From: a virus
Taxonomy: Duplodnaviria; Heunggongvirae; Uroviricota; Caudoviricetes
Length of the DNA stretch: 19,333 nt
Direction: 5' to 3' (one strand)
Virus record (IMG/VR): IMGVR_UViG_2534681662_000010
Shown: piece by piece, positions 1,659-19,333 of the stretch
Position numbering within the stretch: the first letter of the stretch is position 1
How the letters are laid out: every line of letters starts with the position of its first letter
Position numbers and translations under genes: made by a program
The notes under the pieces: model-generated
The model's input: the letters and a program-made list of their open reading frames with translations, nothing else
What the model was told of the DNA's origin: nothing
The model's database searches: none

Positions 1659-1715
1659 GGTGATGCCTCTAATTAGTTGAATCTGATGTATAATACGGGC
1701 TTTTGAGGTTATCTC

Positions 1716-1988
1716 ATGGACAGTGTTAATATTCATTGTCCCCGTTGTCAGTCAGCTCGGGTTTACCGCCATGGTCAGAATCCTAAAGGCCGTGACAGAT
1801 TTCGCTGCCGTGACTGCCACCGTGTGTTTCAGCTCACTTATACTTATCAAGCACGTAAGCCGGGTATGAAAGAGCTGATAACTGAAATGGCCTTTAATGG
1901 TGCCGGGGTTCGCGATACCGCCAGGACAATGAAAATTGGTATTAACACCGTCATCCGGACTTTAAAAAACTCGCGCCAAAGCGAATAA
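1716..1988 (+). CDS. insA: IS1 InsA (zinc-finger/HTH transposition regulator)
   Basis: MDSVNIHCPRCQSARVYRHGQNPKGRDRFRCRDCHRVFQLTYTYQARKPGMKELITEMAFNGAGVRDTARTMKIGINTVIRTLKNSRQSE has the CxxC...CxxC plus HTH layout of IS1 InsA, about 50% identical to the K-12 isoform by eye. Confidence 0.85.
   Translation: MDSVNIHCPRCQSARVYRHGQNPKGRDRFRCRDCHRVFQLTYTYQARKPGMKELITEMAFNGAGVRDTARTMKIGINTVIRTLKNSRQSE
1964..1970 (+). other. IS1 programmed -1 frameshift motif (AAAAAAC) linking insA to insB
   Basis: TTAAAAAACTC at the 3' end of insA, with the insB frame (-1) opening here. Confidence 0.7.
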
Positions 1989-2410
1989 CTTCTTCGCCTG
2001 TTGCCCATGCTGATGTGGCGCTTATCTGCGAGCTTGATGAGCAATAGAGCTACGTTGGCAGTAAAGCCCGGCAACACTGGCTCTGGTACGCGTACAACAC
2101 CAAAACAGGCGGTGTACTGGCCTACACTTTTGGTCCCCGAACCGATCAAACGTGCCGGGAGCTACTGGCACTGCTTACACCCTTCAACATCGGCATGCTG
2201 ACCAGCGATGACTGGGGCAGCTATGGCCGGGAGGTGCCGAAGAATAAGCATCTGACCGGCAAAATATTCACCCAACGCATTGAGCGTAATAATCTGACGC
2301 TACGCACCCGCATTAAGCGGTTGGCTCGTAAAATAATCTGCTTCTCACGCTCAGTTGAGATCCACGAAAAAGTGATCGGAGCGTTTATCGAAAAACACAT
2401 GTTCTACTAA
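1969..2410 (+). pseudogene. insB: IS1 InsB frame (transposase catalytic part) with in-frame TAG at 2045-2047
   Basis: The -1 frame reads ...LICELDEQ*SYVGSKARQHWLWYAYNTKTGGVLAYTFGPRTDQTCRELLALLTPFNIGMLTSDDWGSYGREVPKNKHLTGKIFTQRIERNNLTLRTRIKRLARKIICFSRSVEIHEKVIGAFIEKHMFY. The stop replaces the conserved Trp of the DEQW motif (TGG to TAG). Confidence 0.75.
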
Positions 2411-2424
2411 TTGGATGCACTACC

Positions 2425-2806
2425 ATCACTTGCATGTCTTGCTATCTTATCTTCAGAGAAAATAGTGCAAAGGTTTTTATTTGGGTGTCTTAATAGTTTA
2501 GGAAGTAAAGTTAAGGCTATTATCCACAAGGATATATCTGCAACATGGAGACTTTGTGATATATCTTCAAGACTGTGCCTGAGTGAAAGTTTGTTAAAAA
2601 GAAAATTAAAACACGAAGGCTTATCATTTGGTAAACTAAATCTTGAAGAGCGAATGGTGATGGCGGAAAGCTTATTAAGCTACAATTTATATTCTGTTGG
2701 GAAAGTTGCTGAGATATGCGGTTATGAAAATACGTCATATTTTGTAAGTGTTTTCAGAAGATATTTTGGTGTTCCTCTCCACAAATATTCATCAAGATTT
2801 TTTTAG
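2425..2806 (+). pseudogene. AraC/XylS-family transcriptional regulator, C-terminal DNA-binding domain only (N-terminal domain missing at the IS1 junction)
   Basis: Translation ...WRLCDISSRLCLSESLLKRKLKHEGLSFGKLNLEERMVMAESLLSYNLYSVGKVAEICGYENTSYFVSVFRRYFGVPLHKYSS shows the two-HTH AraC signature. About 35% GC. The frame is closed upstream by IS1 sequence. Confidence 0.7.
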
Positions 2807-3012: not shown

Positions 3013-3228
3013 ATGAAATCCATGGACAAGTTAACAACGGGCATTGCCTACGGCACCTCCGCAGGCAGTGCTGGCTACTGGTTTTTACAGTGGCTTGATC
3101 AGGTCAGTCCATCACAGTGGGCTGCTATTGGTGTGCTGGGAAGTCTGGTTCTGGGCTTTCTGACTTACCTGACGAATCTGTACTTCAAAATAAGAGAAGA
3201 CAAGCGTAAAGCTGCGCGGGGAGAGTAA
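3013..3228 (+). CDS. Phage 21-type class II holin (pinholin) with dual-start motif (Met1 antiholin, Met4 holin)
   Basis: GGAGGTGAGG RBS, then [71 protein letters not shown], which matches the remembered S21 pinholin almost residue for residue: two TMDs and a basic C-terminus. The track ORF start at 2923 is an upstream extension. Confidence 0.9.
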
Positions 3229-3232
3229 TTCA

Positions 3233-3577
3233 ATGACTCAAAACTATGAACTGATTGTGAAAGGGATCCGCAATTTTGAGAATAAAGTTACGGTAACTTT
3301 AGCGTTACGGGACAAAGAACGCTTTGACGGTGAAATTTTTGACCTGGACATCTCGCTGGACCGTGTTGAAGGTGCCGCGCTGGAGTTTTATGAGGCAGCA
3401 GCCAGAAGGAGCATCAGACAGGTCTTCCTGGATGTTGCTGCCGGGTTATGTGAAGGGGATGAGCTGTCGCCGGAAAAGCGCCCCATAATTTTAGAGGCGC
3501 AGAATGTGTGGATAACCTACAAAGGAAAGCTACCGGGAAGAATTACTGGTTCTCTGAAGACTCCGCCGAAATGGTAA
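3233..3577 (+). CDS. Hypothetical 114-aa protein inserted between holin and endolysin (possibly YdfR/DUF1327-like lysis-cassette protein)
   Basis: ATG 5 nt after the holin stop, with GGGGAGAG RBS; soluble, no TM segment. Position matches the essQ-ydfR-rrrQ arrangement of the K-12 Qin prophage, but homology is not verified. Confidence 0.6.
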   Translation: MTQNYELIVKGIRNFENKVTVTLALRDKERFDGEIFDLDISLDRVEGAALEFYEAAARRSIRQVFLDVAAGLCEGDELSPEKRPIILEAQNVWITYKGKLPGRITGSLKTPPKW

Positions 3578-3815
3578 TTTCACCAGCATATTTTTCTTCC
3601 AGTAATACCGCCAGCCACTTGAAAGAATTTTGTTGTTGCTGGGACCATTTGGGGTTGAGTGATTCAAGCTGGAGCGATGCCAGTGTTGGTTGCATTTGTT
3701 CCTTGGGAATTGAGAATGCCAGATATGAAAATGCGACAGTAAGGGCATTTACATCATCCCGAAGCTTGGAAATGCAGTCGAGCAACTCCTGTAGAGAAAT
3801 GGTGCTATTGTCCAT
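3543..3815 (-). CDS. Hypothetical 90-aa protein, convergent with and 3'-overlapping the 114-aa gene
   Basis: ATG (revcomp 3813-3815) preceded by AGAGAGGA at good spacing. Product MDNSTISLQELLDCISKLRDDVNALTVAFSYLAFSIPKEQMQPTLASLQLESLNPKWSQQQQ... looks helical and soluble. No family recognised. Confidence 0.5.
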   Translation of the reverse strand: MDNSTISLQELLDCISKLRDDVNALTVAFSYLAFSIPKEQMQPTLASLQLESLNPKWSQQQQNSFKWLAVLLEEKYAGEITISAESSENQ

Positions 3816-3920
3816 AAACAATCCTCTCTATTGTATTTAACTATTCCTTGCCTGATTCAACAGGCCGGGACAGATAAACATATCCAGGGTTCAGAAACCG
3901 ATAAATCCTGATAAATATCC

Positions 3921-4463
3921 ATGAACGTAAAAATCAGATACGGCCTGTCGGCTGCCGTTCTGGCACTGATTGCCGTCGGGGCGCCTGCGCCTGATATTCT
4001 CGACCAGTTTCTGAATGAAAAAGAAGGTAACCACACAACGGCATACCGCGATGGTTCCGGCATCTGGACCATCTGTCGGGGTGCCACGGTGGTGGATGGA
4101 AAACCCGTTTTTCCCGGTATGAAACTGTCGAAGGAAAAATGCGACCAGGTTAACGCCATTGAACGGGATAAGGCGCTGGCATGGGTGGAGCGCAATATTA
4201 AAGTGCCACTGACCGAACCACAGAAAGCGGGTATAGCGTCATTTTGTCCCTATAACATTGGCCCCGGTAAGTGTTTCCCGTCGACGTTTTATAAGCGGCT
4301 GAATGCCGATGATCGTAAGGGGGCATGCGAGGCGATTCGCTGGTGGATAAAAGATGGTGGGCGTGATTGCCGCCTGACAAAAGGGCAGAAGAATGGCTGT
4401 TATGGGCAGGTCGAGCGGCGCGATCAGGAAAGCGCACTGGCGTGCTGGGGGCTGGAGCAATGA
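3921..4463 (+). CDS. SAR endolysin (T4-lysozyme/GH24-like muramidase with N-terminal signal-anchor-release domain)
   Basis: N-terminus MNVKIRYGLSAAVLALIAVGAPAP is a weakly hydrophobic Ala/Gly-rich SAR segment. The E...D...T catalytic spacing is present in NEKEGNHTTAYRDGSGIWTICRGAT. Paired with a pinholin, as in phage 21. Confidence 0.85.
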   Translation: MNVKIRYGLSAAVLALIAVGAPAPDILDQFLNEKEGNHTTAYRDGSGIWTICRGATVVDGKPVFPGMKLSKEKCDQVNAIERDKALAWVERNIKVPLTEPQKAGIASFCPYNIGPGKCFPSTFYKRLNADDRKGACEAIRWWIKDGGRDCRLTKGQKNGCYGQVERRDQESALACWGLEQ

Positions 4464-4996
4464 AAATTAATCCGGATCTTATAGGCGTTGTCGTTATTGC
4501 TGGCCTTTCGGTCGCTCTCGTCAAGAGTTGCTCTCACGCCAGTAATCTTCAGAGCGATAACGACGTTCTGCGAAGTGACAACTCTATGCTGGGGCAGGTA
4601 ATCGCCACCCAGGCATTCAACTTCAATCGATTCAATCAGGTTGCAGAACATGCCAACAGTCTTAACTCCCTGATCGACACCAGCACCGAAAAAACCGTAA
4701 TCGAATACCGGGAGATTCTCCGCCGTGAAAAAACCTGTGATCTGCCTGTTCCTGCTGATATCGCTGGTGGGTTGCTCGAATACACGTACCGTTTACGTGC
4801 CAGCGCCATGCACACCGATACCGGCAGACCTAATGAAGCCTATGATCGTACCGCTACCACCAGCTCAATGACCTACTGCCAAGCTGTCTTGTGGATTAAG
4901 CCGCTACTGGCGTTGATAGAAAAAGGAAATAATAATTTTTCGAGTATTCGTGAAATTGATGAGTTGCGTTACAGACCATCTGAGCATGGCCAGTAA
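4460..4996 (+). CDS. Rz-like i-spanin
   Basis: ATG overlaps the endolysin stop (ATGA). N-terminal TM segment (LIGVVVIAGLSVALV), then a long helical periplasmic region; an Rz1-like gene is embedded in the +1 frame. Confidence 0.8.
   Translation: MKINPDLIGVVVIAGLSVALVKSCSHASNLQSDNDVLRSDNSMLGQVIATQAFNFNRFNQVAEHANSLNSLIDTSTEKTVIEYREILRREKTCDLPVPADIAGGLLEYTYRLRASAMHTDTGRPNEAYDRTATTSSMTYCQAVLWIKPLLALIEKGNNNFSSIREIDELRYRPSEHGQ
4725..4871 (+). CDS. Rz1-like o-spanin (outer-membrane lipoprotein) embedded within Rz
   Basis: Hand translation from GTG 4725: (M)KKPVICLFLLISLVGCSNTRTVYVPAPCTPIPADLMKPMIVPLPPAQ, with lipobox LVGC and a proline-rich mature part. GGAG lies 9 nt upstream. Below the ORF-track size cut-off. 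Confidence 0.75.
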   Translation: MKKPVICLFLLISLVGCSNTRTVYVPAPCTPIPADLMKPMIVPLPPAQ

Positions 4997-6428: not shown

Positions 6429-6923
6429 ATGGATCGAGAGTTAAAAAATCTGACGCTGAATATCAGTCAACTGGCGGCACTGTCAGGTGTACATCGCCAG
6501 ACTGCTGCGGCAAGGCTGCAAAATCTACCCGTTGCAGGGGGGCATGAAAGCAACCTCAAGCTTTATCGGGTGGTTGATATTGTGTCGGCATTTCTGGCAT
6601 TGCCACCGCCGGTTGCAGAAGGCGAAATGGACGCGCATGAGCGCAAAGCCTGGTATCAGTCTGAACGTGAGCGTCTTAAGTTCGAACAGGAAACGGCACA
6701 ACTCATTCCGGCCAGTGATGTCAGACGGGAGTTTGCCATCTGGGCAAAAGCGGTCGTGCAGGTGCTGGAGACATTACCGGATATTCTGGAACGTGACTGC
6801 GGTCTGCAGCCTGCCGCTGTGAGCCGTGTTCAGTCCATTATTGATGATCTGCGCGATCAGATAGCCCTGCGGGTGACTGAAGCAGGTGCGGATGATGAGG
6901 AGGAATTACAGCAGGAGGAGTAA
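6429..6923 (+). CDS. Terminase small subunit (Nu1-like, N-terminal HTH)
   Basis: Immediately downstream of cos, with its stop overlapping the large terminase start (TAATG). N-terminal ISQLAALSGVHRQTAAARL helix-turn-helix and an acidic C-terminus. Confidence 0.8.
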   Translation: MDRELKNLTLNISQLAALSGVHRQTAAARLQNLPVAGGHESNLKLYRVVDIVSAFLALPPPVAEGEMDAHERKAWYQSERERLKFEQETAQLIPASDVRREFAIWAKAVVQVLETLPDILERDCGLQPAAVSRVQSIIDDLRDQIALRVTEAGADDEEELQQEE

Positions 6924-9025
6924 TGCTGAATCAGGAAACCGCAAAGGCAGCACGAACCGATTCAGGTTATATCCTTCGCGCACCGAGACGAATGCGGGTT
7001 GCTGATGCCGTTGCTCAGTATATGCGGGTGCCCATGGGGGCAGGGAACTCAGTCCCGTGGGATCCGCTGGTGGCACCGTATGTTATTGAGCCGATGAACT
7101 GCCTGGCCTCGCGTGAATACGACGCAGTGATATTTGTTGGTCCGGCACGAACCGGCAAGACTATCGGCCTGATTGACGGCTGGGTGATTTACAACGTGAT
7201 TTGCGATCCTGCGGATATGCTGATCATTCAGATGACGGAGGAAAAAGCCCGCGAACACTCCAAAAAACGACTTGCCAGAACGTTTCGCGTCAGCCCGGAA
7301 GTGGTCAGTCGCCTGAGTCCGAACAAAAATGACAACAACGTTTATGACAGAACATTCCTTGCTGGCAACTACCTGAAAATCGGCTGGCCGTCAGTCAATA
7401 TCATGTCCTCATCAGATTATAAATGCGTGGCGCTGACGGATTATGACCGTTTTCCGGAAGATATTGATGGCGAGGGGGATGCCTTCTCTCTTGCCTCAAA
7501 ACGTACCACCACATTTATGTCCAGTGGTATGACGCTGGTGGAGAGTTCCCCCGGTAGGGATGTGAAGGATGTGAAATGGCGAAGGACTTCACCGCATGAG
7601 GCTCCACCAACCACGGGGATACTGTCGCTCTATAACCGTGGCGATCGCCGTCGCTGGTACTGGCCCTGTCCACACTGTGGTGAGTATTTTCAGCCCTGCG
7701 GCGATGTGGTTGCTGGTTTCCGTGATATTGCCGATCCCGTGCTGGCAAGTGAGGCGGCTTATATTCAGTGTCCTTCCTGTTCAGGACGGATTATGCCTGA
7801 ACAAAAACGTGAGCTGAACGGACGTGGGGTCTGGTTGCGGGATGGTGAATCCATCAATGCGGATGGCAGTCGTTATGGTGATCCCCGACGCTCACGTATT
7901 GCGTCATTCTGGATGGAGGGGCCGGCAGCTGCTTACCAGACACTCTCGCAACTCGTTTACAAACTGCTTACTGCAGAACAGGAATACGAGACAACCGGAA
8001 GTGAAGAAACACTCAGGGCGGTTATCAATACCGACTGGGGATTACCTTATCTTCCCCGCGCCAGCATGGAGCAACGAAAAAGTGAACTGCTTGAGCAGCG
8101 GGCAGAGCCAGTTCCTTCCCGCAGTGTGCCGGATGGCGTTAATTTTCTTGTGGCGACAGTGGATGTGCAGGCGGGACGTCATCGCCGTTTTGTGGTTCAG
8201 GTAACGGGCTATGGCAGCCGTGGCGAACGCTGGATTATTGATCGTTACAACATCACGCAGTCATTGCGCAGTGACTGCGACGGGGAGAGCCAGCGAATTG
8301 ATCCGGCCAGCTATCCGGAAGACTGGGATGTCCTGCTGACGGATGTTTTTCATAAAAGCTGGCCGCTGGCCTCCGATCCTTCTCAACAAATGCGACTGAT
8401 GGCAATGGCGGTGGACTCCGGCGGTGAAGACGGGGTCACTGATAATGCCTATAAATTCTGGCGTCGTTGCCGTCGTGATGGCCTTGGTAAACGTATTTAC
8501 CTGTTTAAGGGCGACAGCATCCGGCGCGCAAAACTGATCACCCGTACATTCCCTGATAACACCGGACGAACGGGCCGACGGGCGCAGGCCGCAGGTGATG
8601 TGCCGCTCTGGCTTCTTCAGACGGATGCACTGAAAGACCGGGTGAATAACGCGTTATGGCGTGACTCGCCAGGTCCCGGCTATGTGCATTTCCCTGACTG
8701 GCTGGGGAGCTGGTTTTACGACGAACTGACGTATGAAGAGCGGAGCAGTGACGGGAAATGGAGTAAGCCGGGTCGCGGTGCCAACGAAGCTTTTGACCTG
8801 ATGGTGTATGCCGAGGCTCTGGTCATTCTGCATGGATACGAAAAGATCCGCTGGCCGGATGCACCGGAGTGGGCGAGCCGGGAAACCTGGCTGGAGTGTG
8901 TCCCGGACAGTACCGAACCGTCACCCTCACCGGAACCGGTACCCACGCCTGTTAAAAAACAAAAACGGAAGAAAACAGTAACTGACGATGTTAACCCCTG
9001 GCTGACTTCCGGAGGATGGTTATGA
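6923..9025 (+). CDS. Terminase large subunit, lambda GpA family
   Basis: 700 aa with Walker A (VGPARTGKT), an internal Cys4 zinc ribbon (CPHCGEYFQPCG...CPSCSG) and a C-terminal nuclease region; synteny with lambda A. Confidence 0.9.
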   Translation: MLNQETAKAARTDSGYILRAPRRMRVADAVAQYMRVPMGAGNSVPWDPLVAPYVIEPMNCLASREYDAVIFVGPARTGKTIGLIDGWVIYNVICDPADMLIIQMTEEKAREHSKKRLARTFRVSPEVVSRLSPNKNDNNVYDRTFLAGNYLKIGWPSVNIMSSSDYKCVALTDYDRFPEDIDGEGDAFSLASKRTTTFMSSGMTLVESSPGRDVKDVKWRRTSPHEAPPTTGILSLYNRGDRRRWYWPCPHCGEYFQPCGDVVAGFRDIADPVLASEAAYIQCPSCSGRIMPEQKRELNGRGVWLRDGESINADGSRYGDPRRSRIASFWMEGPAAAYQTLSQLVYKLLTAEQEYETTGSEETLRAVINTDWGLPYLPRASMEQRKSELLEQRAEPVPSRSVPDGVNFLVATVDVQAGRHRRFVVQVTGYGSRGERWIIDRYNITQSLRSDCDGESQRIDPASYPEDWDVLLTDVFHKSWPLASDPSQQMRLMAMAVDSGGEDGVTDNAYKFWRRCRRDGLGKRIYLFKGDSIRRAKLITRTFPDNTGRTGRRAQAAGDVPLWLLQTDALKDRVNNALWRDSPGPGYVHFPDWLGSWFYDELTYEERSSDGKWSKPGRGANEAFDLMVYAEALVILHGYEKIRWPDAPEWASRETWLECVPDSTEPSPSPEPVPTPVKKQKRKKTVTDDVNPWLTSGGWL

Positions 9026-9234
9026 ACCAGAATGATATCGAAGCCATGATTCAGCGTTATACGGAAGCTGAAATGGCGGTGCTGGACGGAAAATCCGTCA
9101 CCTTTAATGGTCAGCAGATGACCATGGAAAACTTATCTGAGATCCGGCAGGGGCGGCAGGAGTGGGAGCGCCGCCTTGCGGCTCTGATTACACGACGACG
9201 GGGGCATCCCGGGTACCGGCTGGCGAGGTTCTGA
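9022..9234 (+). CDS. W: Head-tail joining protein, lambda gpW-like
   Basis: 70 aa ending ...RRRGHPGYRLARF, like lambda W (...RRRGPAGFYV). Start ATG 9022 after GGAGG; stop overlaps the portal start (TGATG). The track start at 9016 is also possible. Confidence 0.8.
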   Translation: MNQNDIEAMIQRYTEAEMAVLDGKSVTFNGQQMTMENLSEIRQGRQEWERRLAALITRRRGHPGYRLARF

Positions 9235-10742
9235 TGGCAATTCTTGATGATGTGATTGGCGTTTTTTCACCAAGATGGAAAGCGGCAAGGCTGCGTTCCC
9301 GTGCGGTGATCCAGGCTTATGAGGCCGTAAAAACGACGCGGACACATAAAGCCCGACGGGAGAGCCGAACTGCCGACCAGTTAAGCTAGTACGGGGCCGT
9401 GTCGTTACGTGAGCAGGCCCGTTACCTTGATAACAACCACGATCTGGTCATTGGTGTATTTGACAAGCTGGAAGAACGGGTGGTGGGGAAAAACGGGATT
9501 ATTGTCGAGCCACATCCGGTATTACGCAATGGGGCCATTGCCCGTGATCTGGCAGCGGAGATTCGCACCCGATGGAGTGAATGGTCTGTCAGTCCGGAGG
9601 TCACCGGGCAGTTTACCCGTCCGATGCTGGAACGTCTGATGCTGCGTACCTGGCTGCGCGATGGTGAGGTGTTTGCCCAGATGGTTTCCGGGCGCATAAA
9701 CAGCCTGACGCCTTCTGCCGGTGTTCATTTCTGGCTGGAGGCGCTCGAGCCGGACTTTATTCCCATGACCAGTGATGAGAGCAACAGGCTGAATCAGGGC
9801 GTGTTTGTTGATGACTGGGGGCGTCCCGAAAAATATCTGGTGTATAAAAGCCGTCCCGTATCCGGGCGGCAGATGGAAACCAAAGAAGTGGATGCAGAGC
9901 GAATGCTGCATCTTAAATTTGTTCGCCGTCTGCACCAGATGCGCGGGACGTCTTTGTTGTCCGGTGTGCTGATCCGCCTCAGTGCTCTGAAAGAGTATGA
10001 AGATTCTGAGCTGACTGCAGCAAGGATCGCCGCTGCTCTGGGGATGTACATCCGGAAAGGCGACGGACAGAGCTATGAAACGGATGGTAATGACAGCAAG
10101 GAGAATGAACGCGAGCTTACCATTCAGCCAGGCATTATTTACGACGATCTGAAACCCGGCGAAGAAATCGGAATGGTGAAGTCGGATCGCCCCAATCCTA
10201 ACCTTGAAACTTTTCGTAATGGTCAGTTGCGTGCCGTGGCGGCGGGCAGTCGTCTGAGTTTTTCCAGTACAGCGCGCAACTATAACGGCACTTACAGCGC
10301 CCAGCGTCAGGAGCTGGTTGAATCTACTGATGGCTACCTGATCCTGCAGGACTGGTTTATTGGTGCCGTCACCCGCCCGATGTACCGTGCCTGGCTGAAA
10401 CAGGCTGTGGCATCCGGTGTTATCAGGCTACCCCGCGATCTGGACCGATCTTCACTGTATACCGCGGTGTATTCCGGACCGGTGATGCCGTGGATTGACC
10501 CTGTTAAGGAGGCTGAGGCCTGGAAAATTCAGATTCGTGGTGGAGCGGCGACAGAATCAGACTGGGTACGTGCTGGTGGTCGTAATCCGGATGATGTCAA
10601 ACGTCGGCGCAAGGCCGAAATTGATGAAAACCGCAAGCTGGATCTGGTATTTGATACCGATCCGGCCAGTGATAAAGGAGGCAGCAGTGCCGCAACGAAA
10701 CGACAGGAGCCGCAGCACACCGACGACCAGTCCGAAGAATAA
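9234..10742 (+). pseudogene. Portal protein (lambda gpB / Gifsy preconnector family) interrupted by in-frame TAG at 9387-9389
   Basis: ATG 9234 (MAILDDVIGVFSPRWKAARLRSRAVIQAYEAVKTTRTHKARRESRTADQLS) runs to TAG, then continues in the same frame as YGAVSLREQARYLDNNHD... for a further 450 codons (track ORF 9399..10742). Confidence 0.8.
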
Positions 10743-10755
10743 TTCCTGGTTCAGG

Positions 10756-12714
10756 ATGCAGGCAGGTCACCAGAGTGACGCGGATATTTATATTTATGAC
10801 GAGATTGGTTTCTGGGGTGTTACAGCGAAGCAGTTTATCAGTGATCTGAATGCACTGGGCGATATCACCCACATTAATCTCCATATTAATTCACCGGGTG
10901 GCGATGTCTTTGAAGGCATCGCCATTTTTAATGCGCTGAAAACACATGGTGCGTCCATTACCGTTTATGTCGACGGTGTGGCGGCGTCAATGGCGTCGGT
11001 CATTGCGATGGTGGGAAACCCGGTCATTATGCCGGAAAACACCTTCATGATGATTCATAAACCATTTGGCTTTACGGGCGGTGATGCGGAGGACATGCGC
11101 ACCTATGCCGACCTGCTCGATAAAGTTGAGGCGGTTCTGTTACCCGCTTATGCACAGAAAACCGGGAAAACCACCGATGAAATTGCTGCCATGCTGGCGG
11201 ATGAGACCTGGATGTCCGGTGCCGAATGTCTGGCACATGGATTTGCTGATCAGGTAACGCCAGCCGTTAAGGCAATGGCATGTATTCAGTCAAAACGTAC
11301 AGAGGAATTTAAAAAGATGCCGGAATCCATTCGAAACATGATTACTCCGCCACGCAACAGTGCTCCACGCGTACAGGATGATGAACCTGCAGCCTCCCGG
11401 ACGCCAGTGCAGGCAGCAGCACCCGTGGTGGATGAAAACAGTATCCGTGCGCAGGTCCTGGCAGAGCAAAAAGCGCGTGTAAACGGTATTAATGATCTGT
11501 TTGCCATGTTTGGCGGGCGTTATCAGACGCTGCAGGCCCAGTGTCTTGCCGATCCTGAATGTTCGCTGGAGCAGGCCCGCGAAAAGCTGTTGAACGAGAT
11601 GGGGCGCGAGTCCACGCCATCCAATAAAAATACCCCGGCTCATATTTATGCCGGTAACGGTAATTTTGTGGGGGACGGGATCCGCCAGGCGCTGATGGCG
11701 CGTGCCGGATTTGAAAAAACCGAACGTGATAATGTCTACAACGGGATGACCCTGCGTGAATATGCCCGTATGTCACTGACTGAACGGGGTATTGGGGTTT
11801 CCGGTTATAACCCGATGCAGATGGTCGGTGCGGCGTTCACACACAGTACGTCTGACTTCGGTAATATTCTGCTGGATGTTGCGAACAAAGCCATTCTGCA
11901 GGGCTGGGAAGATGCCCCTGAAACCTATGAACAGTGGACGCGGAAAGGTCAGTTGTCTGATTTTAAAATTGCCCATCGTGTGGGTATGGGGGGCTTCAGT
12001 GCTCTGCGTCAGGTGCGTGAAGGGGCGGAATATAAATACGTCACCACCGGAGATAAACAGGCCACTATTGCACTGGCGACCTATGGCGAGCTGTTCAGTA
12101 TCACCCGTCAGGCCATTATCAATGATGATCTGAATATGCTGACCGATGTCCCGATGAAACTGGGCCGTGCGGCGAAATCCACTATTGCCGATCTGGTTTA
12201 TGCCATTCTGACGTCTAACCCGAAAATCTCCACAGATAATGTAAGTCTGTTCGATAAAGCGAAACATGCAAACGTACTGGAGAGCGCTGCAATGGACGTG
12301 GCATCGCTGGATAAAGCCCGCCAGTTGATGCGCGTTCAGAAAGAGGGGGAGCGTCATCTGAATATTCGTCCTGCGTTCGTACTGGTACCGACGGCGATGG
12401 AGTCTGTTGCTAACCAGGTCATTCGCTCCTCAAGTGTCAAGGGGGCTGACATTAACGCCGGTATTATTAACCCGGTGAAAGATTTTGCGACCGTTATTGC
12501 AGAGCCTCGTCTTGATGATAACAGCCAGACCACCTTCTACCTGGCTGCGTCAAAAGGCTCCGATACGATTGAAGTGGCTTATCTCAACGGTGTGGATACG
12601 CCATATATTGATCAGATGGAGGGCTTCAGTGTGGATGGCGTGACAACGAAAGTGCGTATTGACGCCGGTGTCGCGCCAGTTGATCACCGCGGTCTGGTGA
12701 AATGTACGGCGTAA
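10756..12714 (+). CDS. Fused prohead protease (ClpP/S14-like) and major capsid protein
   Basis: N-terminal part has ClpP-like motifs (INSPGGDVFEGIAIFNALK, ASMASVIAMVG, MIHKP). The C-terminal ~330 aa is capsid-like and is followed by a terminator-like hairpin. Start chosen at ATG 10756 just after the portal stop; the track start 10495 lies inside the portal gene. Confidence 0.8.
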   Translation: MQAGHQSDADIYIYDEIGFWGVTAKQFISDLNALGDITHINLHINSPGGDVFEGIAIFNALKTHGASITVYVDGVAASMASVIAMVGNPVIMPENTFMMIHKPFGFTGGDAEDMRTYADLLDKVEAVLLPAYAQKTGKTTDEIAAMLADETWMSGAECLAHGFADQVTPAVKAMACIQSKRTEEFKKMPESIRNMITPPRNSAPRVQDDEPAASRTPVQAAAPVVDENSIRAQVLAEQKARVNGINDLFAMFGGRYQTLQAQCLADPECSLEQAREKLLNEMGRESTPSNKNTPAHIYAGNGNFVGDGIRQALMARAGFEKTERDNVYNGMTLREYARMSLTERGIGVSGYNPMQMVGAAFTHSTSDFGNILLDVANKAILQGWEDAPETYEQWTRKGQLSDFKIAHRVGMGGFSALRQVREGAEYKYVTTGDKQATIALATYGELFSITRQAIINDDLNMLTDVPMKLGRAAKSTIADLVYAILTSNPKISTDNVSLFDKAKHANVLESAAMDVASLDKARQLMRVQKEGERHLNIRPAFVLVPTAMESVANQVIRSSSVKGADINAGIINPVKDFATVIAEPRLDDNSQTTFYLAASKGSDTIEVAYLNGVDTPYIDQMEGFSVDGVTTKVRIDAGVAPVDHRGLVKCTA

Positions 12715-12738
12715 ACGTCGCAGACAACAACTCTGATG

Positions 12739-12757
12739 GCCCGTAAGGGCTTTTTTT
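12739..12757 (+). terminator. Short GC hairpin (GCCC-GTAA-GGGC) followed by T7, downstream of the capsid gene
   Basis: Seen directly; the stem is only 4-5 bp, so strength is uncertain. Confidence 0.45.
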
Positions 12758-12800
12758 GTACCTGAAATCAGCCCCTGAACGGGGCTGTGCGGAGACAGTT

Positions 12801-13124
12801 ATGGCAAAGAATTTTGTAGAAGAAGGAAAAACGGTGGCGATTGTTGCCAGTGCAGCCATCAGCAGCGGAGATCTGGTGCAGGTGGGTGATGTTTTTGCGG
12901 TGGCGCTGACCGATATTCCACAGGGTGAAACAGGCGACGGCATGACCGAAGGTGTGTTTATGCTGCCTAAGCTGAAAACGGATGACATGAAAACGGGTAA
13001 GAAGGTTTATCTGAAGTCCGGAAAAGTTCAGCTGACTAACAGCGGCTCTGATCCGCTGGTCGGGGTTGTCTGGGCAGATGCCGGAACCAGTGCAGAAGAA
13101 GTGCCGGTAAAACTCAATGTCTGA
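12801..13124 (+). CDS. Small head protein (DUF2190-like; putative head completion or decoration protein)
   Basis: ATG 12801 after GGAGA; 107 aa MAKNFVEEGKTVAIVASAAISSGDLVQVGDVFAVALTDIPQGETGDGMTEGVFMLPK..., lying between the capsid gene and the FII-like gene. Confidence 0.6.
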   Translation: MAKNFVEEGKTVAIVASAAISSGDLVQVGDVFAVALTDIPQGETGDGMTEGVFMLPKLKTDDMKTGKKVYLKSGKVQLTNSGSDPLVGVVWADAGTSAEEVPVKLNV

Positions 13125-13392
13125 TCCCTTTTCCCGGCTGGCAGCGCGTATGGATGCGATCACGGTCAGAAAGATGGGAAAGACAGCCTCGATTAATGAT
13201 GCCGATATGACTGTGATCCCGGGAGAAACACTGGCAGAGCTGAATGCTCTGTCCGGACCTGCGGTCTCTCTGGTGGTGTTTTCTTCGGGATACCGCCCAC
13301 GGCGCGGGGATCGCGTTGTTTATGACGGACAACAATGGACGGTCACACGGCATGAACGTTTTAACGGTAAGCCAATGATCTTTATTGAGTAA
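13117..13392 (+). CDS. Head-tail joining protein, lambda gpFII-like
   Basis: MSDPFSRLAARMDAITVRKMGKTASI...RRGDRVVYDGQQWTVTRHE resembles lambda FII (ADFDNLFDAAIARADETIRGYMGTSATI...RRGDTLTIGEENFWVDRV) and sits directly upstream of Z. Confidence 0.65.
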   Translation: MSDPFSRLAARMDAITVRKMGKTASINDADMTVIPGETLAELNALSGPAVSLVVFSSGYRPRRGDRVVYDGQQWTVTRHERFNGKPMIFIE

Positions 13393-13403
13393 AGAGGTGT
13401 GGG

Positions 13404-13982
13404 ATGAAGGGGCTTGAGAATGCCATCCGTAATCTGAACAGCCTTGATACCCGTATGGTGCCACAGGCCAGCGCATGGGCGATAAACCGTGTGGCACAGA
13501 AAGCGGTCTCGGTCGCCACCCGGCAGGTTGCCGGGAATACCGTTGCGGGAGATAACCAGGTGAAAGGGATCCCCCTGAAACTGGTACGTCAGCGTGTCCG
13601 GGTGTTTAAAGCCAGTCCGTCAGGAAAAATGACGGCCAGGATCCGCGTTAACCGGGGCAATCTGCCCGCTATTAAGCTGGGGACAGCCCGGGTCAGACTG
13701 GCCCGGCGTGGTGGAAAACTGCAGTACCGTGGCAGTGTGCTGAAGGTGGGTAAATATCTTTTCCGGGATGCGTTTATTCAGCAACTGGCGAATGGTCGCT
13801 GGCATGTGATGCGGCGTATTGATGGCAAAAATCGTTACCCCATTGATGTGGTGAAAGTCCCGCTGTCCGGACCGCTGACACAGGCATTTGAAGATGCCCG
13901 CGACCGCATCATTGCTGCGGAAATGCCGAAACAGCTGGGGTATGCACTGAAACAACAACTGAGGTTATGGCTGACCCGATGA
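13404..13982 (+). CDS. Z: Minor tail protein Z (tail completion)
   Basis: MKGLENAIRNLNSL...AINRVAQKA...RIRVNRGNLPAIKLGTARV...FIQQLANGRWHVMRRIDGKNRYPIDVVKVPL is clearly homologous to lambda gpZ. Confidence 0.9.
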   Translation: MKGLENAIRNLNSLDTRMVPQASAWAINRVAQKAVSVATRQVAGNTVAGDNQVKGIPLKLVRQRVRVFKASPSGKMTARIRVNRGNLPAIKLGTARVRLARRGGKLQYRGSVLKVGKYLFRDAFIQQLANGRWHVMRRIDGKNRYPIDVVKVPLSGPLTQAFEDARDRIIAAEMPKQLGYALKQQLRLWLTR

Positions 13983-14380
13983 ACCGACATACACAAATCC
14001 GCCAGGCCGTACTGGCACGCCTTCGGGAACAGTGTGGAGACAGCGCCACGTTTTTTGACGGGCTTCCGGCATTTATTGATGCGCAGGAACTGCCTGCCGT
14101 GGCGGTGTGGCTGAGTGATGCTCAGTACACCGGAAAAATGACGGATGAAGATGACTGGCAGGCTGTTCTGCATATTGCTGTCTTCATCCGGGCACAGGCA
14201 CCGGATTCAGAGCTGGATATGTGGATGGAGAGCACCATTTTCCCGGCTCTGAATGATATACCGGCACTTTCCGGACTCATCGACACCCTGATCCCTCTCG
14301 GTTTTAACTATCAACGTGATAATGAGATGGCCACCTGGGCGATGGCGGAAATCACGTACCAGATCACGTACACGAATTAA
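13967..14380 (+). CDS. U: Minor tail protein U (tail terminator)
   Basis: ...GDSATFFDGLPAFIDAQELPAVAVWLSDAQYTG...WQAVLHIAVFIRAQAPDSELDMWMESTIFPALNDIPALSGLI... matches lambda gpU. The true start may be ATG 13979 (MNRHTQIRQAV), which aligns with the lambda U N-terminus. Confidence 0.9.
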   Translation: MADPMNRHTQIRQAVLARLREQCGDSATFFDGLPAFIDAQELPAVAVWLSDAQYTGKMTDEDDWQAVLHIAVFIRAQAPDSELDMWMESTIFPALNDIPALSGLIDTLIPLGFNYQRDNEMATWAMAEITYQITYTN

Positions 14381-14391
14381 AGGAGGTGGCA

Positions 14392-15135
14392 ATGACCACA
14401 CCAAATCCACTGGCAAAAACGAAAGGTGCGGGAACGACGTTCTGGATGTACACCGGCAAGGGCGATGCGTTTGCGAACCCTTTATCAGACACTGACTGGC
14501 TGCGTCTTGCGATGGTGAAGGATCTGCAACCTGGCGAAATGACCGCTGATGCAGAAGATGACACTTATCTCGATGATGAAGATGCAGACTGGAAAACGAC
14601 AACCCAGGGGCAGAAATCCGTCGGTGATACTTCGGCGACGCTGGCCTGGCGTCCGGGTGACAGCGGGCAGAAAAAACTGGTTCAGTTGTTCGACTCCGGT
14701 GAAGTCTGCGCGTTTCGTATCAAATATCCCAACGGCACTGTTGATGTTTTCCGTGGCTGGCTGAGCTCACTGGGTAAAACCATTGCCTCAAAAGACGTGA
14801 TGACCCGCACAGTGAAAATCAGCGGTGTGGGGCGTCCGTATCTGGCAGAGGAAGGCACTGAAACAGTGAGCGTTACCGGGCTGACGGTGGCACCGGCATC
14901 TGCCAGTGTAAAAGTGGGAGCAACCACCACGCTGACCTTTACAGTAAAACCTGACGGAGCCAGTGACAAAGCGATCAGTGTGCATTCGACAGATCCACAG
15001 ACTGCCACGGTGACCCTGAACGGGCTTGTGGCCACGGTGAAAGGCGTGAAGCAGGGCAGTGTCAGCATTGTGGGCATGACTTCTGACGGCGATTTTGTGG
15101 CAGTGGCTGCGGTGGCTGTCAGCGCCGCAGGTTAA
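14392..15135 (+). CDS. V: Major tail protein V with C-terminal Ig-like (Big_2) domain
   Basis: AGGAGG RBS, then MTTPNPLAKTKGAGTTFWMYTGKGDAFANPLSDTDW...YLDDEDADW...NGTVDVFRGW..., near-collinear with lambda gpV. Confidence 0.9.
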   Translation: MTTPNPLAKTKGAGTTFWMYTGKGDAFANPLSDTDWLRLAMVKDLQPGEMTADAEDDTYLDDEDADWKTTTQGQKSVGDTSATLAWRPGDSGQKKLVQLFDSGEVCAFRIKYPNGTVDVFRGWLSSLGKTIASKDVMTRTVKISGVGRPYLAEEGTETVSVTGLTVAPASASVKVGATTTLTFTVKPDGASDKAISVHSTDPQTATVTLNGLVATVKGVKQGSVSIVGMTSDGDFVAVAAVAVSAAG

Positions 15136-15155
15136 CAGGACGATACTCATCATTT

Positions 15156-15179
15156 GCCCCGGTTATCCGGGGCTTTTTT
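15156..15179 (+). terminator. Hairpin GCCCCGG-TTAT-CCGGGGC plus T6 immediately after V
   Basis: Seen directly: 7-bp GC stem, 4-nt loop, T-run. Likely a partial terminator or attenuator after the abundant tail tube gene. Confidence 0.7.
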
Positions 15180-15192
15180 GCAGGTGGAGAAC

Positions 15193-15582
15193 ATGATGTT
15201 TCTGAAACAGGGCACGTTTAATTATGAAAAGCAGTCCGTGGTGCTCAGTGAGCTGTCCGGGCTGCAGAGAATTGAATATCTGGCGTTTGTTCAGCAGCGA
15301 ACGGCAAAGTTTGATGCCGAAGAGGGAGAACTGCCGGAGGCTGAACGACAGATTGCTTTTCTGCGGATGGGGATGGATATCAATGCCTGGCTGGTTTCCC
15401 GCTCACTGTGGAATGCGGAACAGTCTCAGGATGTTGAGACGCTTTGCGCATCCGTTATTACAACATGGTCGTATGATGCCCTGGGAGCGGGGGCGGAGAT
15501 GGTTCTGTCGCTGAGCGGTATGGGAGCCATTGAGAATGCCGGGGATTTGGAGCATGAGGTGCTGACGCCGGAAAAGTCCTGA
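15193..15582 (+). CDS. G: Tail assembly chaperone G
   Basis: GGTGGAGA RBS, then ATGATG; MMFLKQGTFNYEKQSVVLSELSGLQRIEYLAF resembles the lambda gpG N-terminus. The track start at 15154 lies within the upstream terminator. Confidence 0.85.
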   Translation: MMFLKQGTFNYEKQSVVLSELSGLQRIEYLAFVQQRTAKFDAEEGELPEAERQIAFLRMGMDINAWLVSRSLWNAEQSQDVETLCASVITTWSYDALGAGAEMVLSLSGMGAIENAGDLEHEVLTPEKS

Positions 15583-15920
15583 CGCGGGAAATGCAGTTTG
15601 TCATGCGGCTTGCCCGGGAGTTCCGGCGGGCAGACTGGCGGCGGATGCTGTCGGAAATGTCGGCCACTGAGCTTGGTGAGTGGGGCGATTATTTCCGGAT
15701 GCAGAGCTTCAGTGATGTGTGGATGGATGCGCAGTTTGCCTCGCTGAAGGCATTGATCGTGAGAATGGTGTCCGGTAGCAGTGATGCTGCGGTGGCTGAT
15801 TTCAGCCTTTTACCGGAAGAGAACGGGATACCGGAGCGAACGGACGAAGAACTGATGCATCTTGGGGAAGGTATTTCCGGAGGTGTGCGTTATGGACCAG
15901 ATAGCCAACCTGGTCATTGA
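15193..15920 (+). CDS. T: G-T tail assembly chaperone fusion made by -1 frameshift (T-frame portion 15570-15920)
   Basis: The -1 frame ORF (track 15591..15920) directly follows G and overlaps the tape-measure start, the conserved G/GT architecture of long-tailed phages. Confidence 0.7.
15570..15576 (+). other. Candidate -1 programmed frameshift site for G-T fusion (G GAA AAG)
   Basis: The T frame is closed by TGA at 15555-15557 and the G frame ends at 15580-15582, so the shift must occur within 15558-15579. The only slippery-like element is GGAAAAG, one base different from the lambda GGGAAAG. Confidence 0.55.
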
Positions 15921-18900
15921 TTTGGGGATTGATGCGGCAGAGTTTAAAAATGAAATTCCCCGTATCAAAAACCTTCTGAATGGTGCAGCCAGCGATGCAG
16001 AACGGTCTTCTGCCCGTATGCAGCGTTTTATGGAGCGTCAGACTCAGGCCGCCCGGCAGACAACGCAGGCAGCTTCTTCGGCTGCAACAGCCGCATCCGT
16101 CCATGCGCAGACGGTGGAGAAGAACGCACAGGCTCATGAACGCATGGCCCGCGAGGTGGAGAAAACCCGCCAGCGCATGGAGGCACTGAGCCAGAAAATG
16201 CGCGAGGAACAGGCGCAGGCCATGGCTCTGGCGGAGGCTCAGGATAAAGCGGCTGCCGCGTTTTATCGTCAGATTGACAGTGTGAAACAGGCCAGTGCGG
16301 GGCTGCAGGAATTACAGCGTATTCAGCAGCAGATCCGACAGGCCAGAAACAGTGGCGGGATTGGTCAGCAGGATTATCTGGCGCTGATTTCTGAGGTTAC
16401 TGCGAAAACTCGTGTTCTTACACAGGCTGAGGAAGAGGCTACCCGACAGAAAGTGGCGTTTATCCGTCAGCTTAAAGAGCAGGCAACCCGCCAGAATCTT
16501 TCTTCTTCTGAGTTGCTTCGTGCTAAGGCTGCCCAGCTGGGGGTAAGCAGTGCTGCAGAAGTGTATATCCGCAAAATGGAGCAGGCAGGAAAAGCCACGC
16601 ATTCGCTGGGTCTGAAAAGTGCAGCGGCCCGCCAGGAGATAGGCGTTCTGATAGGTGAACTGGCTCGCGGCAATTTAGGTGCGCTGAGGGGATCCGGGAT
16701 AACGCTGGCTAACCGTGCCGGATGGATAGACACACTGATGTCACCGAAAGGCATGATGCTGGGCGGGGTTATTGGCGGTATTGCCGCGGCCGTCTATGGT
16801 CTGGGTAAAGCCTGGTATGATGGTCAGAAGGAGGGGGAAGAATTTAACCGCCAGTTGTCGCTGACGGGGCATTATGCCGGAGTCACTGCCGGGCAGCTGT
16901 GGACGCTCAGTCGTGCTATTTCCGGGAATGGTATTACGCAACATGCTGCAGCCGGTGCGCTGGCTCAGGTGGTGGGGAGTGGTACATTTCGTGGAAACGA
17001 TATCGGTATGGTGGCGAGAGCTGCCGCACAGATGGAGCGATCGGTTGGCCAGTCGGTCAGCGATACCATAAATCAGTTTAAGCGGCTGAAGGATGATCCT
17101 GTAAATGCCGCGAAGGCTCTGGACAATGAGCTGCATTTTCTTACTGCCACTCAGCTTGAGCAGATACGCGTCCTTGGGGAACAGGGGCGGTCCAGTGATG
17201 CGGCACGGATAGCCATGTCTGCACTGGCAGAGGAAACCGGTCGGCGTACTGCGGATATTGATAATAACCTCAATGCGCTGGGCAGTACGCTGAAGTATCT
17301 GTCTGATTTATGGAGTCGTTTCTGGGATGCGGCCATGAATATTGGTCGTGAAGACTCGCTGGATGAACAGATTTCCGCTTTACAGGAGAAAGTGTCGCGG
17401 GCGAAAAGACTCCCCTGGACGGCATCATCTTCTCAGGTTGAGTACGATCAGCAGCGTCTTAACGAGCTTCAGGAGAAAAAACGCCAGAAGGATTTGCAGG
17501 ATGCAAAAGAGCAGGCAGAGCAGAATTATCAGGAGCAACAGAAACGCCGTAATGCTGAAAATGCTGCACTGAACCGGATGAATGAAACGGAAGCAGCACG
17601 ACATCAGCGTGAAATTGCGCGTATTAATTCCATGCAGTACGCCGATCAGGCTGTCAGGGATGCGGCGATACAACGTGAAAATGAACGTTACGAGAAAGCC
17701 CTGGCATCCGGTAAGAAAAAAACACGCGAAACCCGTAATGATGAGGCCACCCGGTTATTGCTGCAGTACAGTCAGCAACAGGCACAGGTGGAAGGACAGA
17801 TTGCTGCTGCCAGACAGTCAGCAGGCATTGCCACGGAAAGGATGACAGAAGCGCATAAACAGCTTCTGGCTCTGCAGCAGCGCATCAGCGACCTGGACGG
17901 GAAAAAACTGACGGCAGATGAAAAGAGTGTGCTGGCCCGTAAAGATGAACTGATTCAGGCACTGACGCTGCTGGATGTAAAACAGCAGGAGCTTCAGAAA
18001 CAGACGGCACTCAACGAGCTGAAGAAAAAAACAATTCAGCTGACCAGTCAACTGGCTGAAGAAGAGCGCGCTCAGCGTCAGCAACATGACCTGGATATCG
18101 CCACGGTGGGTATGGGTGATCAGCAGCGGCAGCGATATCAGGTACAACTGAGTCTTCGCCAGAAATACCAGCAACAGCTGGAGCAGTTGAGGCGGGATAG
18201 TGAGCAGAAAGGAACATATAACACGGATGACTACAGAAAGGCCGAGCAGGCGCTGACGGAGAGCCTGAACCGACAACTGAATGAGAATCGCCGTTACTGG
18301 CAACAGCTTGAAGTTGTGCAGGGTAACTGGAAAAACGGAGTCCTGCGTGCATTTCAGAATTTTACCGTGGATGCAGATAATACGGCAGGAACAGCAGAAC
18401 AGGTGTTCTCGTCAGCCTTCAGCAACATGGGAAATGGCCTGGCAACTTTTGTCACTACCGGCAAACTCAATTTCAAATCCTTCACCTCTTCTGTGCTGTC
18501 AGATATGGCGAAAATCCTGGCGCAGGCAACCATGATGAAATCGATAAAAGGGATTGGCAGTGTACTGGGATTTGATCTCAGCAGCCTTTCCCTGAATGCC
18601 AATGGGGGGATTTATCAGTCTGCTGATTTGAGTCGTTACAGTGGCACGGTGGTTAACCGTCCGACGTTTTTTGCTTTTGCAAAAGGCGCGGGTGTGATGG
18701 GGGAAGCGGGACCTGAAGCCATTCTGCCACTGCGTCGTGGTGCTGACGGTAAGCTGGGGGTTGTGGCGGATATTGGTGGTTCAGGTATGGCGATGTTTGC
18801 CCCGCAGTACAACATCGAGATCAATAACGATGGCACGAACGGGCAGATAGGTCCGGCTGCCCTGAAGGTGGTTTATGACCTCGGGAAAAAAGCGGCAGCG

Positions 18901-18957
18901 GACTTTATGCAACAGCAGGCCCGTGATGGTGGTCGGTTAAGTGGAGCATATCGGTAA
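15892..18957 (+). CDS. H: Tail tape measure protein H (1021 aa)
   Basis: GGAGG RBS, ATG 15892. Very long, Ala/Gln/Glu-rich coiled-coil protein with a Gly-rich putative TM stretch (LGGVIGGIAAAVYGLG) and a conserved C-terminus, in the position between G-T and M. Confidence 0.9.
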   Translation: MDQIANLVIDLGIDAAEFKNEIPRIKNLLNGAASDAERSSARMQRFMERQTQAARQTTQAASSAATAASVHAQTVEKNAQAHERMAREVEKTRQRMEALSQKMREEQAQAMALAEAQDKAAAAFYRQIDSVKQASAGLQELQRIQQQIRQARNSGGIGQQDYLALISEVTAKTRVLTQAEEEATRQKVAFIRQLKEQATRQNLSSSELLRAKAAQLGVSSAAEVYIRKMEQAGKATHSLGLKSAAARQEIGVLIGELARGNLGALRGSGITLANRAGWIDTLMSPKGMMLGGVIGGIAAAVYGLGKAWYDGQKEGEEFNRQLSLTGHYAGVTAGQLWTLSRAISGNGITQHAAAGALAQVVGSGTFRGNDIGMVARAAAQMERSVGQSVSDTINQFKRLKDDPVNAAKALDNELHFLTATQLEQIRVLGEQGRSSDAARIAMSALAEETGRRTADIDNNLNALGSTLKYLSDLWSRFWDAAMNIGREDSLDEQISALQEKVSRAKRLPWTASSSQVEYDQQRLNELQEKKRQKDLQDAKEQAEQNYQEQQKRRNAENAALNRMNETEAARHQREIARINSMQYADQAVRDAAIQRENERYEKALASGKKKTRETRNDEATRLLLQYSQQQAQVEGQIAAARQSAGIATERMTEAHKQLLALQQRISDLDGKKLTADEKSVLARKDELIQALTLLDVKQQELQKQTALNELKKKTIQLTSQLAEEERAQRQQHDLDIATVGMGDQQRQRYQVQLSLRQKYQQQLEQLRRDSEQKGTYNTDDYRKAEQALTESLNRQLNENRRYWQQLEVVQGNWKNGVLRAFQNFTVDADNTAGTAEQVFSSAFSNMGNGLATFVTTGKLNFKSFTSSVLSDMAKILAQATMMKSIKGIGSVLGFDLSSLSLNANGGIYQSADLSRYSGTVVNRPTFFAFAKGAGVMGEAGPEAILPLRRGADGKLGVVADIGGSGMAMFAPQYNIEINNDGTNGQIGPAALKVVYDLGKKAAADFMQQQARDGGRLSGAYR

Positions 18958-19286
18958 TGGAGACGTTTCACTGGAAAGTGCGCCCGGATATGAATGTGGT
19001 ATCAGAGCCGAAAGTGGTGACAGTGAAGCTGGGCGATGGTTATGAACAGCGTCGTGCGGCGGGACTGAATAACCAGTTGTCGATTTACAGCGTGACGATA
19101 CGTGTTCGTAAATGTGAACACCCATCTTTAAAAGCCTTTCTGGAACGGCACGGTGGCGTCCGCGCATTTCAGTGGACGCCACCTTATGACTGGAAGCCGA
19201 TCAGGGTGGTTTGTCGTAAATGGTCGGCAAGCGTGGGGGCGCTGTGGGTAACCATAACGGCAGATTTTGAACAGGTCGTGGCATAG
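18957..19286 (+). CDS. M: Minor tail protein M
   Basis: METFHWKVRPDMNVVSEPKVVTVKLGDGYEQRRAAGLNNQLSIYSVTI...HGGVRAFQWTPPYDW...FEQVV is homologous to lambda gpM. Start overlaps the H stop (TAATG). Confidence 0.9.
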   Translation: METFHWKVRPDMNVVSEPKVVTVKLGDGYEQRRAAGLNNQLSIYSVTIRVRKCEHPSLKAFLERHGGVRAFQWTPPYDWKPIRVVCRKWSASVGALWVTITADFEQVVA

Positions 19287-19296
19287 GAGGCCCTGA

Positions 19297-19333
19297 TGCA
19301 GGATATTTCACAGGAAACACATCATGAGACGAC
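19297..19333 (+). CDS. L: Minor tail protein L, first 12 codons (continues beyond window)
   Basis: MQDISQETHHET matches the lambda gpL N-terminus (MQDIRQETL...). Confidence 0.7.

Follow-up and report, generated by a model that had tools for sequence, protein, structure and literature searches.

Introduction

The portal dodecamer of tailed phages nucleates procapsid assembly, docks the terminase and forms the channel through which DNA enters the head. Nonsense mutations in the lambda portal gene are classical laboratory tools: the Bam ambers grow only on suppressor hosts, and DNA packaging fails on non-suppressing ones.

The closest described relatives of the locus studied here are the lambdoid phages mEp460 (portal protein YP_007112078.1) and cdtI. 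In these phages, terS, terL, a W-like adaptor gene, the portal gene and a fusion of a ClpP-like protease with the major capsid protein (ClpP-MCP) follow one another, and the portal gene begins with ATG and has 502 codons. We analysed a window of 19,333 bp, which is the complete draft contig AQDT01000050.1 of assembly GCA_000355595.1, and found the same gene order, the same start codon and the same codon number when the frame is restored. Between positions 9016 and 10800 the DNA is 98.1% identical to mEp460 and 98.5% to cdtI, and 495 of 503 positions of the portal protein agree with mEp460. Unlike these phages, which have CAG at codon 52, the window has TAG, so that no full-length protein would be made.

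An identical TAG at the equivalent codon is present in the portal pseudogenes of the Escherichia coli strains 101EVA and GPEC1405. The DNA to the left differs: these strains combine a terminase allele of 699 aa with a different lysis cassette and with cold-shock and gnsB genes as cargo, whereas the window has a 700-aa terminase and an IS1/plasmid-like junction. As in lambda Bam, the lesion is a nonsense codon in a lambdoid portal gene. In contrast to the laboratory-selected mutants, it occurs naturally in a resident prophage, and lambda gpB is only distantly similar to the window portal in sequence (PDB 8K38, E = 1e-4). A further comparison is offered by the cryptic prophages Qin and DLP12. 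Close relatives of the window prophage carry Qin-type genes (hokD, rem, ydfU, essD/rrrQ, cspI, gnsB), and the window prophage shares with Qin and DLP12 the IS insertions and point lesions of prophage decay. Unlike Qin of K-12, whose decay we take to be much further advanced, its visible morphogenetic module is intact apart from one codon.

Results

The portal frame is interrupted by one amber codon

The portal reading frame runs on the + strand from the ATG at 9234 to a TAA ending at 10742 and comprises 503 codons including the stop. Its one internal stop is the TAG at 9387-9389, codon 52 (...TADQLS*YGAVSLREQ...). A first-pass annotation of this DNA had described the frame as continuous but for this TAG, and both the frame translation and the list of open reading frames (ORFs) reproduce its coordinates and description exactly. 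The resulting features are:

9234..10742, + strand: lambda-family portal gene (PF05136), a pseudogene with one internal amber; 502 codons when restored
9387..9389, + strand: TAG amber, codon 52; ancestral CAG (Gln), C>T at 9387
9234..9389, + strand: ORF of a 51-aa N-terminal fragment, created by the amber
9399..10742, + strand: residual 447-aa ORF with a GTG start three codons past the TAG; covers Pfam profile positions 25-354

The 447-aa ORF matches the Pfam family PF05136 (Phage_portal_2, lambda family) with 264.6 bits (1.9e-78; gathering cut-off 32.9 bits). This match begins at profile position 25, and the ORF lacks positions 1-24. When the stop is replaced by Gln, the restored 502-aa protein scores 276 bits (E = 6.5e-82) over residues 35-372. 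Here, the match starts at residue 35, which corresponds to profile position 3, and spans the stop. This places the amber within the conserved domain, and the frame is not open over the whole of it. A chance arrangement of ORFs is ruled out, as both sides of the TAG lie in one frame and are ~99.8% identical to an intact annotated portal.

A sequence search of the PDB with the portal returned distant portals alone (8GTD, 8VHX and lambda 8K38), with a single weak, non-significant stretch extending to residues 61-119. The gene lies between the genes for the terminase large subunit and W-like adaptor on one side and the prohead protease-capsid gene on the other, as is typical of a head module. Homology and gene order identify the portal and its neighbours as a head module of the mEp460/cdtI type found in lambdoid phages. 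Sixteen phage records are 98.0-99.2% identical to the region 9016-10800, and 1,928 of 5,426 complete E. coli genomes contain a match to it.

Codon 52 is CAG in intact orthologues

In E. coli YA-1, which is the best match, and in the phages mEp460 and mEp460_ev081, the portal gene is annotated from the identical ATG, with 1509 nt and 502 codons. A base-by-base check of these three orthologues found CAG (Gln) at codon 52 in every one, which provides the ancestral codon that the first-pass annotation had proposed to identify by comparison with intact homologues. YA-1 and the window differ at only 3 of 1509 bases, one being the C/T at 9387 and the other two synonymous. With CAG in the orthologues and a single base separating it from TAG, the lesion is one C>T transition.

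The same ATG is used by intact orthologues in the viable phages mEp460, mEp460_ev081 and cdtI and in more than 1,800 complete E. coli genomes. A 61-mer containing the TAG is absent from all 16 phage records, each of which annotates the matched region as a portal gene, unflagged. Uninterrupted orthologues of 502 codons and unflagged phage portals rule out that portals of this family naturally start downstream and are preceded by a separate small gene. Programmed readthrough or a two-gene layout is likewise rejected, as the stop is not conserved among functional relatives (0 of 16 phages, and CAG in the three orthologues). We consider it highly probable that the portal gene is an ordinary amber pseudogene that arose through one C>T transition, from CAG to TAG.

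The TAG allele is a minority variant in E. coli

A 61-nt query centred on the TAG had exact matches in only 2 of the 1,871 complete E. coli genomes in which this sequence occurs: 101EVA, from a human in Singapore, and GPEC1405, from a chicken in the USA. PGAP calls the allele a pseudogene in both (SE696_RS01030 and ACYVV0_RS03195, respectively), with the product 'phage portal protein' and the remark 'internal stop'. In public assemblies, gene calls include the 51-aa fragment that ends at the amber on 203 contigs and the exact 447-aa ORF on 204, compared with at least 1,000 contigs for the intact 502-aa protein that is otherwise identical to the window portal.

Six representative contigs with the 447-aa ORF were inspected. 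Four have the identical TAG and two have upstream frameshifts, so the ORF counts slightly overstate the number of TAG carriers. In one of the latter (L010, 9900-10000) the ORF is reached via a 1-nt deletion upstream of codon 52, without a TAG. In the other (L013, 9600-10000) it is reached via several indels upstream of codon 52, again without a TAG, and further split genes in L013 suggest long-read indel errors. An exact-pattern scan of the GTDB species-representative genomes did not find a 43-mer containing the TAG, which is expected, as each species has one representative genome.

These data show the TAG to be a genuine variant, present in a minority of the E. coli population, and not a base-calling error. 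A sequencing error at this base, which the first-pass annotation had named as a possible refutation, is at odds with the presence of the codon in two complete genomes and of fragment ORFs on about 200 contigs.

Carriers fall on several prophage backgrounds

Over the 11,334 positions from 8000 to 19333, five TAG carriers are near-clonal, with 0-2 differences. A sixth, L014, differs from this group at 25-26 positions. The window differs from all other carriers at 41-54 positions; for 101EVA and GPEC1405 the figure is 41-42 of 11,334 in the head and tail region from about 8000. Among non-carriers, YA-1 differs from the window at 63 positions and CFSAN061769 at 81. The examined carriers thus represent three or more prophage backgrounds that differ slightly. 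That the prophage was recently inactivated, as the first-pass annotation had it, is a fair description of the clonal group; it does not hold in the sense of a lesion private to the window strain, as other strains share the allele and carriers lie 0-54 substitutions per 11.3 kb apart.

To the left of about position 8000, the window has a different terminase and lysis haplotype, and its exact TerL protein is recorded on one contig, that of the window itself. Directly upstream of the portal (9027-9102) the window is YA-1-like and unlike the TAG clone. At 9387 and in the tail genes it resembles the TAG clade.

A second, related prophage in the same genome might provide an intact portal of this family while the window's own portal is dead, and the mosaic could even stem from two near-identical prophages collapsed into one contig during assembly. 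In line with this, some E. coli genomes have 2-5 places that match the portal region, and the contig ends at repeats, in an IS30 at its left end and in a tail gene at its right end. However, the median is one copy of the portal region per genome, the window itself gives no sign of a second copy, and real recombination between lambdoid prophages explains the mosaic equally well. We regard a rescuing second prophage as quite unlikely, although it fares best among the alternatives to a plainly defective prophage.

The simplest reading of the haplotypes would be a single origin of the TAG followed by homologous recombination, as is typical of lambdoid prophages. As an alternative to descent, an independent C>T transition may have occurred on a YA-1-like background. 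The haplotype data lean towards identity by descent with recombination rather than recurrent mutation. The carriers have also acquired further lesions, which include an IS3 in Q (GPEC1405), a truncated distal tail gene (101EVA), an IS in L014 and, in the window, an IS1 upstream of the holin gene. Such differing additions would look like the pattern expected from the ongoing decay of a dead prophage.

The remaining structural and lysis genes are intact

All 13 remaining structural genes of the window, terS to the M-like minor tail gene, are full length and have no internal stop. Their products are 96-100% identical to those of the viable phage mEp460, with which the module is collinear at 98.9% DNA identity over 7.4 kb, placing it in the mEp460/cdtI type. 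The genes are:

6429..6923, + strand: terminase small subunit (DUF1441), intact; 160/165 identical to mEp460
6923..9025, + strand: terminase large subunit (GpA ATPase and nuclease), intact; 694/701 identical to mEp460
9022..9234, + strand: gpW-like head-tail adaptor, 70 aa, intact; 71/71 identical, stop overlaps the portal ATG
10687..12714, + strand: ClpP-like prohead protease/major capsid protein fusion, intact; 5' end overlaps the portal 3' end
12801..19286, + strand: nine more genes for head and tail, each intact and 96-100% identical to mEp460 in amino acids, as follows
12801-13124, + strand: decoration protein
13117-13392, + strand: Gifsy-2-type head closure protein
13404-13982, + strand: Z-like protein
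13979-14380, + strand: U
14392-15135, + strand: major tail protein
15196-15582, + strand: G
15591-15920, + strand: T
15892-18957, + strand: tape measure protein
18957-19286, + strand: M-like minor tail protein

The lysis genes are open as well:

3013..4996, + strand: lysis cassette
3013-3228, + strand: P21-type holin
3233-3577, + strand: DUF1327 protein
3921-4463, + strand: lysozyme
4460-4996, + strand: Rz-like protein

The first-pass annotation had considered the flanking structural genes as well as the tail and lysis genes to be intact, and both statements are borne out: none of the 13 structural genes has an internal stop, the tail genes are full length, and the holin, DUF1327, lysozyme and Rz-like frames are open. 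Gene-call lengths across terS-L in the TAG carriers show no obvious breaks either.

Two ORFs lie on the opposite strand, one of 230 aa between the lysis genes and terS (5165-5857, - strand) and one of 90 aa inside the lysis cassette (3543-3815, - strand). Both are conserved in relatives as 'hypothetical protein' and match nothing in Pfam or PADLOC; they may be moron genes.

An IS1 element joins plasmid-like DNA to the prophage in the draft contig

The window starts in the end of an IS30 and stops inside the tail gene L, and both ends are assembly breaks at repeats. Positions 1-2426 begin with the IS30 end, followed by an IS3 fragment, an immunity gene of the colicin E1 type, a fragment encoding a colicin pore domain, and an IS1. 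An E. coli plasmid contains a segment with the same arrangement at 99.2% identity. The immunity gene, of the colicin E1 family (681-1016, + strand), is intact. Next to it, a 232-aa ORF (1038-1736, - strand), whose ATG lies inside the IS1 end, encodes a complete colicin pore-forming domain without translocation or receptor domains. The pair has the appearance of an orphan immunity gene that accompanies a truncated colicin and came from a plasmid. The features at the junction with the prophage are:

1659..2426, + strand: IS1-family element in the AraC-type helix-turn-helix (HTH) gene upstream of the holin; chimeric, insB TGG>TAG at 2045-2047
2427..2806, + strand: 3' remnant of an AraC-family HTH regulator gene (GadX/YdeO/HilD-like), 5' end cut by the IS1; prophage cargo

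The element has insA and insB joined by a frameshift at an A-run (A6C) within about 768 bp, as in IS1, and the IS1 transposase model NF033558 matches both of its halves. The insB codon at 2045-2047 is TGG in the plasmid copy and TAG in the window. This second amber, to which the first-pass annotation had also drawn attention, is therefore real. It breaks the transposase frame, and the window copy probably cannot move by itself. An identical insB TAG is found at the equivalent IS1::HTH junction in AH04, where PGAP notes an 'internal stop', and the junction DNA occurs in several other complete genomes at 99.6-99.7% identity.

The two ambers had been called independent, and their distribution agrees. 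AH04 has the IS1 amber and a portal of a different family, and the EVA-type loci with the portal TAG have no IS1 in the region examined. The IS1 amber and the portal amber thus originated in separate lineages, and the two together say nothing in common about the host.

Positions 1659-1879 of the IS1 are identical to the plasmid copy (NZ_CP141737.1) and positions 1782-2345 to the AH04 chromosomal copy, which places the join between plasmid-like and prophage DNA inside the IS1. The join is either a true IS1-by-IS1 recombination, with integration of a plasmid, or an assembly chimera.

In relatives, the AraC-type regulator gene lies directly upstream of the holin gene. In the window, a terminator-like hairpin (2885-2906) lies between the HTH remnant and the holin gene, and promoter and terminator consensus motifs ahead of the lysis genes were no more numerous than in shuffled sequence. 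In AH04 and other strains with the equivalent junction, other DNA lies to its left and the entire early region has been lost, Q included. The first-pass annotation had reported the Q/late-promoter module as missing. This is correct for the contig, which contains neither Q nor pR'; it does not extend to absence from the genome, as the contig is a draft with a join in IS1.

Discussion

We have described a natural amber allele in the portal gene of an E. coli prophage. The CAG in its orthologues, the 'internal stop' call by PGAP and the location of the stop within the conserved domain all speak for a dead allele. Translation from the ATG at 9234 would end after 51 residues, and full-length portal would be made only by very rare natural misreading of UAG. 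Without a dodecameric portal, we would expect no correct procapsid nucleation, no docking of the terminase and no DNA packaging, and tails would have no connector to join. If late transcription is still inducible, tails, capsid protein and lysis proteins could still be made and the cell could still lyse, but there would be no DNA-filled heads and no infectious or transducing particles. Given the essential role of portals in tailed phages, the prophage is thus very likely unable to package DNA, in agreement with the first-pass annotation.

The intact state of all other structural genes fits a young lesion and would also fit continued use. The allele may make the prophage conditionally productive, by way of natural amber suppressors, leaky misreading as Gln or portal from a co-resident prophage, or the host may itself use a tail and lysis module without a portal. 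This reading draws on the persistence of the allele on about 200 contigs and at least three backgrounds, together with the intact state of the other morphogenetic genes, and we consider it very unlikely.

How could a phage with this allele be conditionally viable? A host suppressor tRNA, or leaky decoding by near-cognate tRNA-Gln, could allow the amber to be read through. Suppressors of the supE type (glnV/glnX; tRNA-Gln with the anticodon CUA) insert Gln, and a CAG>TAG change is exactly what they revert. As 12 portal copies per head suffice, leaky expression might yield a few particles. The roughly 200 contigs with every other structural gene intact, and the second TAG lesion in the window in the IS1 insB, could be taken in the same sense. 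However, the ambers come from different lineages and do not point to one suppressor host. Basal readthrough of UAG is about 1e-3 or less, and a T after a stop codon, which is the base that follows the portal TAG, makes an efficient termination context.

A phage-borne suppressor tRNA was not found in the window, which has no tRNA gene, or in related prophages. In the latter, tRNA genes lie just downstream of Q (L004 2692-2766, L005 2692-2766 and L007 547-804). These are tRNA-Met(CAU), in ECC-1470 together with tRNA-Arg(UCU), and include no amber suppressor; related prophages with the TAG carry tRNA-Met(CAU) as their sole tRNAs. A literature search yielded nothing specific on the portal TAG allele or on natural amber suppressors. 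We judge conditional viability through readthrough highly improbable.

Reinitiation at the GTG at 9399, nine bases past the TAG, could instead give a working portal of 447 aa that lacks residues 1-55. The GTG is in frame, near the stop and closely preceded by a G-rich stretch (ACGGGG), and gene callers predict the 447-aa ORF, whose NCBI entry reads 'phage portal protein'. During maturation of phage lambda, gpB loses its first 20 residues. However, the G-run ends 2 nt before the GTG, a poor spacing for a ribosome-binding site, and the lost segment includes the conserved Pfam positions 3-24. Moreover, viable phages of the family have no short portal form, and PGAP scores the locus as a pseudogene. 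A functional short portal is thus extremely improbable.

Equally hard to credit is a sequencing or assembly error that conceals a C at 9387 and an intact portal: the contig is short and belongs to an older draft assembly, and with its exact TerL on one contig the TAG has been seen once on the window background, but a random mistake is very unlikely to recreate an existing population allele, here present in identical form in two complete genomes and, by base-level inspection, in at least four more assemblies, with fragment proteins on about 200 contigs. Even jointly, the four escapes from a packaging defect, namely a suppressor tRNA, leaky readthrough, reinitiation at GTG 9399 and a portal from a co-resident prophage, remain unlikely.

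Taken together, the TAG allele, which is already annotated as a pseudogene in RefSeq, is a case of ordinary prophage decay, and its importance beyond annotation is small. The prophage of the window and those with the same allele in about 200 other E. coli assemblies look complete and should nevertheless be scored as defective by prophage predictors. The deposition of the residual 447-aa ORF as 'phage portal protein' is a warning for the use of gene callers at such loci. The C>T transition at codon 52 provides a clean natural marker with which this prophage lineage, and the recombination between it and its relatives, can be followed.
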